Below, piece after piece: positions 4,518 through 5,114 of a stretch of 10,626 nt of DNA. Position numbers and translations under genes: made by a program. The DNA is taken from IMG/VR virus record IMGVR_UViG_2529292985_000036. The stretch is one strand, 5' to 3'. The notes under the pieces are model-generated. The model made no database searches. It was given only the letters and a program-made list of their open reading frames with translations, and was not told the DNA's origin. The DNA comes from a virus (lineage: Duplodnaviria; Heunggongvirae; Uroviricota; Caudoviricetes). Each line of letters begins with the position of its first letter. Position 1 is the stretch's first letter.

Positions 4518-4594
4518 CACCCCTCCAAAGTTGAGTTTTCTCAATAGCAATCATTCAAGGAATCTCGAGTCAAGGGTTATTAAGATATCTAAAT
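4518..4594. promoter_or_regulatory. Divergent promoter/operator region between the cro-like gene and the dicA-like repressor
   Basis: 77-bp intergenic region with perfect palindrome TTGAGTTTTCTCAA (4531..4544), direct repeat tcaagg (4555..4560, 4570..4575), ctcgag palindrome (4564..4569), and AT-rich -10-like taagat (4581..4586) just before the dicA ATG. Individual promoter hexamers not confidently assigned. Confidence 0.5.
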
Positions 4595-5002
4595 ATGAAC
4601 GAGAAAACTTTAGGTCAACGAATTAGAGAAAGACGCAAACAGGTTGGTTTAAGTCAAAACGATTTAAGCAAAGCCGCTGGCGTATCTGGCTCATCAATTT
4701 CACTATGGGAAAGCGACCATACAGCCCCGCGCGGGCAAAATTTGCATCGCCTGGCTGAGGTATTGCAATGTTCACCAACTTGGATACTGTTTGGTGACGA
4801 GGATAAAACACCAGATCCACCAGTAGCACTCAACAGCGCCTTAGACTTATCGGAAGATGAGTTGGAGATGTTGCGATTGTATCGCGCACTTCCAAAATCA
4901 GAGCAGCAAGCACAAATCAGCGAACTCCGTGCCCGCGTTGAGAATTTTAATCGCCTATTCACCGAGCTACTAGAAGCTCGCAAACGTAACAAACATCAGT
5001 AA
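4595..5002 (+). CDS. dicA: DicA-like prophage repressor (HTH XRE family), 135 aa
   Basis: MNEKTLGQRIRERRKQVGLSQNDLSKAAGVSGSSISLWESDHTAPRGQNLHRLAEVLQCSPTWILFGDEDKTPDPPVA... Same length as E. coli DicA and similar by recall (VLQCSPTWILFGDEDK segment). No Shine-Dalgarno before the ATG, so possibly leaderless. Synteny with dicF/dicB/ydfD downstream. Confidence 0.8.
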   Translation: MNEKTLGQRIRERRKQVGLSQNDLSKAAGVSGSSISLWESDHTAPRGQNLHRLAEVLQCSPTWILFGDEDKTPDPPVALNSALDLSEDELEMLRLYRALPKSEQQAQISELRARVENFNRLFTELLEARKRNKHQ

Positions 5003-5019
5003 CCCCCTTCACAAATTTT

Positions 5020-5056
5020 AAAGCCTTACATTTCAATGTATTGGCTTTATTTTGCA
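5020..5056 (+). terminator. Possible intrinsic terminator after dicA
   Basis: Interrupted hairpin AAAGCC-T-TACAT-ttca-ATGTA-TT-GGCTTT (5020..5048) followed by ATTTTG. The stem is AU-rich, so this is weak. Confidence 0.35.
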
Positions 5057-5063
5057 TTAAATA

Positions 5064-5114
5064 TTGAGTTTTCTCATAAAAATGCTTGACCAATATTCAT
5101 GAGAAAACTAAATT
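5064..5114 (+). promoter_or_regulatory. Putative sigma70 promoter of the dicB-type operon with flanking operator half-sites
   Basis: -35 TTGACC (5086..5091), 17-bp spacer, -10 TAAATT (5109..5114). TTGAGTTTTCTCAT (5064..5077) and its inverted copy ATGAGAAAACTAAA (5099..5112) flank and overlap the promoter; same motif as the palindrome at 4531..4544. Confidence 0.55.

Follow-up and report, generated by a model that had tools for sequence, protein, structure and literature searches.

Which protein reads a short DNA motif that recurs around the repressor genes of a prophage, and what does it control? This question is raised by positions 4531 to 5112 of the IMG/VR virus record IMGVR_UViG_2529292985_000036, a stretch of 10,626 nucleotides assigned to the Caudoviricetes (Duplodnaviria; Heunggongvirae; Uroviricota), which at its full length we call the window. 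The motif is found between a dicA-like repressor gene and its Cro-type neighbour dicC, and again at dicBp, the promoter of the operon that carries the DicF small RNA and the dicB gene. A preliminary description had found it consistent with one repressor, presumably the DicA-like protein, governing the immunity switch, its own expression and the dicF/dicB operon. Judging from sequence comparison, we put at roughly 85% the probability that an immunity repressor of the P22-C2/DicA type, encoded by a defective lambdoid prophage akin to Qin, has the motif as its operator. The architecture is that of the textbook P22/Qin immunity switch, known since the 1980s, and involves no new mechanism.

All positions and letters were checked in the window sequence, and the four copies are indeed where they had been described. 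Site 1 (4531-4544, TTGAG-TTTT-CTCAA, TTGAGTTTTCTCAA), site 2 (5064-5077, TTGAG-TTTT-CTCAT, TTGAGTTTTCTCAT) and site 3 (5099-5112, ATGAG-AAAA-CTAAA, ATGAGAAAACTAAA, with reverse complement TTTAGTTTTCTCAT) are 14 bp long, while the fourth copy, GAGAAAACT, is a 9-mer at 4601-4609 on the minus strand, within dicA codons 3-5 (E-K-T). The 9-mer core AGTTTTCTC occurs exactly four times on both strands of the 10.6-kb window, always within 4534-5109, against 0.09 expected occurrences, and none of 200 dinucleotide-preserving shuffles (0/200) reached four copies. A search for the 14-mer with up to three mismatches gave three matches versus 1.48 expected in the window, which is not significant by itself. 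Site 1 had been called a perfect palindrome, and this is wrong: its reverse complement is TTGAGAAAACTCAA, the symmetry is limited to the 5-bp arms TTGAG/CTCAA and the central TTTT is non-palindromic. The operator form is rather a pseudo-palindrome of about 18 bp with a 14-bp core nTGAG-(A/T)4-CT(C/A)AA, in which two half-sites of the nTTGAG type enclose four A/T base pairs.

As in immunity regions of the P22/lambda type, these pseudo-palindromes overlap the core elements of a PR-like and a PL-like promoter, both read from the sequence. The dicC-like gene (4290-4517, minus strand, 75 aa, with its ATG at 4517) and the dicA-like gene (4595-5002, plus strand, 135 aa) are divergent and 77 bp apart, forming the short control region with multiple related operators that is typical of P22 and lambda. 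The dicC promoter, PdicC (PR equivalent; 4544-4573, minus strand), has a -35 TTGACT (4573-4568) in common with K-12 and P22 PR, an 18-nt spacer and a -10 TGCTAT (4549-4544). Site 1, with an 18-bp footprint at 4529-4546, lies directly downstream of this -10, over the expected dicC transcription start, and the 13 nt between it and the cro-like ATG hold a GGAGG Shine-Dalgarno sequence. The dicC start has been mapped by 5' rapid amplification of cDNA ends (5'RACE) in K-12 only (PMC3441716). The -10 TGCTAT itself is restricted to the window and a few close relatives, all other lineages having TAnnnT (TACTAT, TAGTAT, TATCAT, TAATAT etc.); with G in place of A at the second, critical position, PdicC may be weaker in this prophage.

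Downstream of dicA, a consensus scan gave a sigma-70 match, TTGACC-17-TAAATT, at 5086-5114 (plus strand), which is the dicB-operon promoter dicBp (PL equivalent) and whose -35 aligns with those of K-12 dicBp and P22 PL. The description of motif copies flanking this -35 and overlapping the -10 was accurate: the upstream operator, site 2, precedes the -35 by 8 nt, and the promoter-core operator, site 3, begins 7 nt past it, fills the spacer and overlaps the -10.

The same layout is annotated in phage P22, whose record BK000583 gives OR1-OR3 (a 66-nt protein_bind feature), OL1-OL3, PR, PRM and PL, with the operators listed as C2 repressor sites. Alignment of the 67-bp control region matches OR1 to window positions 4529-4546, OR2 to 4553-4570 and OR3 to 4578-4595. 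On the dicBp side, site 2 is matched by OL2 (ATTTAAGTTTTCTTCAAA), whose centre is likewise TTTT, and site 3 by OL1, each pair having TTGACC in between and a spacing of 35 bp. P22 and the window share the PRM hexamers AGGAAT-17-TAAGAT. Both systems have 18-bp sites with outer half-sites and a 4-bp A/T centre; the half-site is nTTGAG in the window versus TTTAAG or TTAAAG in P22, and the recognition helix SGSSISLWES versus SNVAISQWER. According to this operator-by-operator alignment, the motif copies would be the operators of an immunity region that derives from P22 and has a changed half-site. Unlike P22, the window has no equivalent of OL3: neither the matrix scan described below nor the P22 alignment found one upstream of site 2. 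Instead, a terminator-like hairpin followed by AUUUUG (5019-5049, plus strand; -12.3 kcal/mol, z-score -3.76) is found there, between dicA and dicBp. Its stem letters differ in Buttiauxella relatives, in which the hairpin is seemingly kept.

Regarding the Qin prophage of E. coli K-12, its gene order (YdaT/ydfX side, dicC, dicA, ydfA, DicF, dicB) is that of the window, and its operators are placed as in the window when measured from the dicC and dicA starts and from the dicBp -35. Site 1 starts 14 nt from the dicC start codon, versus 16 nt for the longer, 20-bp K-12 operator Oc. Two Oc-like sequences flank the identical dicBp -35 TTGACC of K-12, just as sites 2 and 3 do in the window, with a centre-to-centre distance of 35 bp in both, and site 2, which is kept in all lineages, aligns with the K-12 site ATGTTAGCTATAGCATACAA as well as with P22 OL2. 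Identity between K-12 and the window resumes right after the dicBp -10, the leader being nearly identical. The operator letters are different, Oc being TTGTTAGTCATAACTAACAA in K-12 versus TTGAGTTTTCTCAA in the window, and the window does not share the specificity of Oc. In K-12, DicA binds Oc in vivo and single-base changes abolish this binding; Oc overlaps the dicC -10, and DicA bound there represses dicC and activates dicA (PMC3441716). DicA also represses dicBp, and three operators are said to be present at each promoter, as at lambda PR and PL (PMC10448788). The operator calls of Bejar et al. (1986, 1988) are taken here as relayed by these two articles (PMC3441716, PMC10448788).

One could argue that the repeats are an artefact of chance or ancestry, that is, inherited A/T-rich promoter DNA sharing a 9-13-mer without any sequence-specific function. 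The result of the 14-mer search would agree with this, and the close relatives all share one recombination block. We compared a close set of 85 loci, made of 80 IMG/VR loci with 99-100% identical DicA plus the window and the loci L001, L083, L084 and L171 (96-100%), among which the dicC-dicA intergenic region has 25 distinct variants and dicBp has 44. In the dicC-dicA region, 2/28 columns inside the sites are variable versus 28/54 outside (p = 7e-5), and at dicBp (5056-5122) the values are 7/28 and 25/33 (p = 1e-4), where the Fisher p-values are indicative only, given that related sequences are non-independent samples. Besides, the distance from the dicBp -35 to site 3 is fixed in 40 distinct cassettes, and the 7 nt in between are hypervariable. 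The cores are thus invariant beside hypervariable positions of the same block, and they are also invariant across lineages of about 75% identity, as detailed below. Together with the shuffling of the 9-mer, this makes an origin by chance or mere ancestry scarcely credible. The window itself has one base fewer between site 2 and the -35 (5078-5085; CTCATAAAAATGC versus CTCATTAAAAATGC), and hence a spacing of 35 bp between the centres of sites 2 and 3, compared to 36 bp in 36/40 distinct cassettes.

Outside the close set, a profile scan of genome contigs with the DicA alignment gave 8 loci. The divergent set comprised two Buttiauxella genomes and two IMG/VR contigs, with a DicA roughly 70-76% identical to that of the window, plus variants at 96-99%. 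All the divergent relatives have preserved the two dicBp sites, and TGAGTTTTCTCAA at the dicC promoter, amid intergenic DNA that has diverged; TGAGTTTTCTCAA is invariant in 7 divergent lineages. The promoter-core site at dicBp is CTGAGATATCTAAA in one relative and ATGAGAAATCTAAA in another, so the operator centre varies but stays A/T. We then built a position weight matrix from the 12 sites of four non-E. coli relatives only and scanned the window with it. Site 1 (23.5 bits), site 2 (20.9) and site 3 (19.9) ranked at the top, followed by a sequence at 4580-4593, and everything below was noise. In window-type loci, matches of at least 10 bits outside the dicA coding sequence are found only at these four homologous positions, and the K-12 locus has no match of at least 10 bits with this window-type matrix. 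In the motif comparison with related prophages, which the preliminary description had put forward as a check, the three sites are kept at equivalent positions in window-type relatives, and the K-12 type carries another sequence.

The 40 dicBp cassettes also bear on a different explanation, in which the inverted pair at dicBp, with 21-nt arms at 5063-5083 and 5093-5113, would act as a DNA cruciform or an RNA hairpin, for instance in transcripts reading through from dicA. A repeat search found these arms to be 86% complementary, and the RNA fold of the pair has -11 kcal/mol and a z-score of -3.7. However, pairing outside the 11-nt operator cores amounts to 38% in the 40 distinct cassettes, against 37.6% in the null, and this absence of compensatory pairing in the flanks led us to reject the hairpin or cruciform. 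Besides, the motif stands alone and unpaired at the dicC promoter, operators occupy these places in P22 and K-12 too, where they form no long inverted repeat, and the terminator-like hairpin at 5019-5049 already lies between dicA and the repeat. A structural role of the pair is very improbable.

The sequence that ranked fourth in the scan, at 4580-4593 (TTAAG-ATAT-CTAAA, TTAAGATATCTAAA), is an operator candidate that the preliminary description had overlooked, and it is the equivalent of P22 OR3 and Qin Oa. It has 10/14 identity to site 1 and the same 5+4+5 symmetry, with half-sites TTAAG and TTTAG, and scores 12.8 bits with the asymmetric and 14.5 bits with the symmetric matrix, both built without that site. 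It is 49 bp from site 1, a distance equal to that between Oa and Oc in K-12. We found it conserved in all lineages and present in every window-type locus, overlapping the predicted -10 and start of dicA; the same sequence is also kept in the C. braakii type, and its conservation may therefore partly reflect the promoter itself. The putative dicA promoter (PRM equivalent; 4558-4586, plus strand) consists of AGGAAT (4558-4563), a 17-nt spacer and TAAGAT (4581-4586), and as transcription is predicted to start near 4592, with the ATG 3 nt further on, the dicA mRNA would be nearly leaderless. A middle operator equivalent to P22 OR2 and Qin Om is possible at 4553-4570 (ATTCAAG-GAAT-CTCGAGT, ATTCAAGGAATCTCGAGT), which overlaps the -35 of the dicA promoter and the PdicC spacer and aligns with the annotated P22 OR2 (ACTAAAGGAATCTTTAGT). 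A block CAAGGAA.CTC within it is kept in all lineages, and the matrix score is only 0-8 bits, so that, if it is an operator, it would be a degenerate one. The spacings of this OR1/OR2/OR3-like triplet are 24 and 25 bp.

The 9-mer in the dicA codons had been listed with the other copies as well. Its reading as an operator is not supported. The copy is absent from the Buttiauxella-type relatives that keep the three sites perfectly, and in the four divergent lineages L085, L086, L092 and L093, which retain the other sites, every wobble position and one amino acid differ (ATGAATGAAATGACG...). Its half-sites each match at 3/5 positions, and its matrix scores, 7.4 asymmetric and 1.9 symmetric bits, are at background, versus 20-23 and 17-21 bits for sites 1-3. 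By these comparisons, the codon copy is probably not an operator. One could still propose a true autoregulatory operator that is confined to the E. coli lineage and forms a roadblock on the near-leaderless dicA transcript, at about +9 to +17, given that an exact 9-mer near the operators is expected by chance at about 0.002 per 200-bp neighbourhood (scaled from the window expectation) and that an 18-nt stretch at the copy is 83% identical to the site-3 region. The copy sits, however, in coding sequence (N-E-K-T), and with its loss in the four lineages and its background score we consider such a role unlikely, although we keep it in mind as a weak lineage-specific site because the coincidence of the 9-mer is itself somewhat unlikely. 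By analogy with Qin, where DicA at Oc activates dicA (PMC3441716), control of dicA more likely runs through activation from site 1 and through 4580-4593 than through the codon copy. Another match in dicA, TTGAGAATTTTAAT at 4938-4951, reached 11.1 bits with the symmetrised matrix and was rejected as chance: it lies in codons V-E-N-F-N and occurs solely in loci whose protein has V-E-N-F, L085 and L092 lacking it, and around 0.6 such matches are expected by chance per window.

The proteins encoded on both sides of the control region are consistent with this arrangement. The DicA-like protein is 56% identical to K-12 DicA and has a helix-turn-helix domain (Pfam HTH_3, 1.2e-16); its residues 1-72 match the N-terminal domain of P22 C2 (PDB 1adr and 2r1j; E 2e-15), and its C-terminal region is of the DicA type. 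The DicC-like protein is 71% identical to K-12 DicC, with matches to Pfam P22_Cro (1.1e-17) and to P22 Cro (PDB 1rzs, E 1.9e-12). A self-cleaving S24 peptidase-like domain of the kind stimulated by RecA was not found, the 135-aa DicA-like protein matching only helix-turn-helix families in Pfam and its PDB matches ending at about residue 72. According to the Pfam matches, its C-terminal region is hence not the oligomerisation and cleavage domain of the P22 and lambda repressors, which is a difference from P22. K-12 DicA is alike in this respect and is relieved by an antirepressor (PMC10448788).

In addition, the operators co-vary with the recognition helices of both proteins. TTGAG-type sites go with the DicA helix S[GD]SSISLWES and the DicC helix DPSAVSQW in E. 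coli, mEp460, Buttiauxella and two viral contigs, while GTTAGT-type sites go with SHVSVSQWER in DicA and SLY[SK]W in DicC, both in K-12 and in Citrobacter NCU1, whose DicA is just 53% identical to that of the window. The Citrobacter braakii type has the helix SHATISLWES and intermediate GTT[GA]AG sites. Each of the two types is thus present in at least two divergent lineages, with P22 and the C. braakii type in addition, which is the behaviour of an operator of the P22/lambda type. The positions of the three sites at those of P22 OR1, OL2 and OL1 and of Qin Oc, their invariance in divergent relatives and their co-variation with the recognition helix all argue for DicA operators.

The idea of one repressor stood in that the three 14-bp sites behave as operators at the cro-side and dicBF promoters. 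It was incomplete in that the DicC helix-turn-helix co-varies with the motif too, and control of dicA through the codon copy is unsupported. Since the helices of DicC and DicA fit the sequence data equally well, one could argue that the main or even sole binder of the sites is the Cro-like DicC, or a different protein of phage or host origin, and K-12 DicA was found unbound at Om and Oa (PMC3441716). On the other hand, DicA occupies the orthologous Oc in vivo (PMC3441716) and is a repressor of dicBp (PMC10448788). In P22, C2 and Cro share operators, as do repressor and Cro in lambda. The P22 operators are moreover annotated as C2 sites, so that binding by both proteins is a simpler reading than binding by DicC alone, which we regard as quite unlikely. 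From the co-variation, DicC probably shares the DicA sites.

The geometry of the sites also fits what is known of the P22 repressor, a dimer that binds 18-bp operators and contacts positions 2-7 and 12-17 but not the central 4 bp, whose A/T content, with ApA and ApT steps favoured, sets the affinity through narrowing of the minor groove (PMC4267663). The window sites have nTTGAG at positions 2-7 and an A-tract in the middle, and their centres are always A/T (TTTT, ATAT, AAAT). Several points weigh against reading the motif as a set of DicA operators, in addition to the non-independence of the sequences compared. The window DicA has His42 and Ala44 where the P22 repressor has Glu42 and Glu44, which are implicated in the readout of the central bases, and an E44A mutant of the P22 repressor is less sensitive to these bases (PMC4267663); without the two glutamates, the P22 account of the A/T centre may not transfer to the window. 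The TTTT centre is also conserved in one orientation only, for which a symmetric dimer offers no obvious reason. In K-12, DicA bound only Oc in vivo and not the Om and Oa predicted from sequence (PMC3441716), and by analogy the weak window sites may likewise be unbound by DicA alone. Moreover, the location of DicA at K-12 dicBp is catalogued as low-evidence or unknown (PMC7567609). Among residues 40-44, encoded within 4595-4730, window-type DicA has S40, D41, H42 and A44, versus R40, S41, E42 and E44 in the P22 repressor.

If the sites are operators of the DicA-like protein, the switch could work as follows. A dimer of the 135-aa protein would bind each operator through its helix-turn-helix N-terminal domain. 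At site 1, dimers would block RNA polymerase at PdicC (-10 at 4549-4544, start expected near 4537), keeping dicC and the replication genes off, and by analogy with Qin Oc they would stimulate the weak, near-leaderless dicA promoter, perhaps with help from the degenerate OR2-like block. At site 3, with or without help from site 2, dimers would block dicBp and the ydfA-DicF-dicB operon would be silent. We infer that DicC recognises the same sites, and the OR3-like sequence at 4580-4593 would shut dicA off when filled by DicC or by an excess of DicA.

The element is very probably a defective Qin-like E. coli prophage. Many E. coli chromosomes match its immunity segment at 99.4% identity, and most of this segment is found in about 800 of the 5,426 complete E. 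coli genomes. In mEp460_ev081 (LR597641) and HannyBb (PP925841), which are complete, functional or near-complete phage genomes, as opposed to the window element with its IS1 fragment and frameshifted P gene (see below), the immunity region is 90% identical over 841 bp. In mEp460_ev081, DicA and DicC are each 96% identical to those of the window and all four operator sites have identical cores, so that this phage is predicted to be homoimmune with the prophage. As K-12 Qin differs both in its operators and in the helix-turn-helix helices of the two proteins, it would be heteroimmune with the window element.

The finding is one at the level of annotation, correct and useful, and it provides a precise operator map for a very common type of E. 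coli prophage repressor. The window-type repressor gates DicF and DicB, which are regulators of host cell division and phage resistance, and by orthology the map adds positional evidence for DicA action at dicBp, the location catalogued as unknown for K-12. Homoimmunity with mEp460-like temperate phages is predicted. Neither TTGAGTTTTCTCA nor its reverse complement was found in the papers searched, and the TTGAG-type operator sequence therefore seems undescribed. Taking these elements together, it is conceivable, though we hold it as a tentative proposal that may well fail, that TTGAG-type operators with the S[GD]SSISLWES (DicA) and DPSAVSQW (DicC) helices define an undescribed immunity specificity of the P22-C2/DicA family, in a series running from P22 TTAAG through window TTGAG to K-12 TTAGT. 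This specificity would be carried by the active mEp460_ev081 and by those approximately 800 of 5,426 complete E. coli genomes; the defective prophages would then be a standing immunity against mEp460-like phages, several DicF/DicB operons per cell would be under one repressor type, and the E. coli lineage might have an extra weak site in the dicA coding start.

Finally, we examined the setting of the control region. The gene assignments identify the window as the early region of a lambdoid, Qin-like prophage, in which a DicA-family repressor and DicC lie upstream of a ydfA-DicF-dicB operon, as in the DicA/DicC-dicBF module of Qin. A YdaT-like gene (3755-4306) precedes dicC. Downstream of dicBp come DUF1391/ydfA (5191-5343), the DicF small RNA (6036-6087, plus strand; Rfam RF00039, 76.7 bits, E 6e-16), which belongs to the dicBp-controlled operon, and the cell-division inhibitor gene dicB (6262-6450, plus strand; Pfam DicB, 129.5 bits), which carries that name in the annotation of an E. 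coli record of 99.4% identity. The place of K-12 ydfB and ydfC, between ydfA and DicF, is taken in the window by a 128-aa open reading frame (5343-5729) without a Pfam match. The leader of the dicB operon (5121-5190; CATCAAGACACCGCACGGTGTTCTCAGCAAACAGTTCCGC...GGCGTTAAGGGG) is near-identical in the window and the heteroimmune K-12, and its stems look partly compensated in distant relatives; it could be a nut-like or RNase-processing element.

The early-region genes also include those for DUF4406, DUF977, DUF1627, a lambda-P-like and a DnaT-like replication protein, and excisionase and lambda-type integrase genes are present as well. The lambda-P-like gene (2288-2954, minus strand) is frameshifted, with its first 38 residues in the open reading frame 2577-2954 and the remainder in 2288-2614, and its counterpart in a 99%-related E. 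coli prophage is intact, with 153 aa. Judging from this frameshift, replication of the prophage is probably defective. An IS1 insertion marks the window edge: a transposase fragment at 1-378 (C-terminal 125 codons; Pfam DDE_Tnp_IS1, 248 bits) abuts or overlaps an Ead/Ea22-like gene (313-786, minus strand) at its 3' end. In an 824-aa protein encoded at 6731-9205, the C-terminal domain is an Rv2179c-like 3'-5' exoribonuclease (Pfam, 226 bits), and the long N-terminal part, acidic and Q-rich, has no family match; related genomes label the protein just 'exonuclease'. Metagenome-assembled genomes under the names Bacillota, Veillonella parvula and Collinsella also contain dicA loci nearly identical to the E. 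coli type (L083, L084 and L088), which probably results from contamination during binning by enterobacterial prophage contigs.

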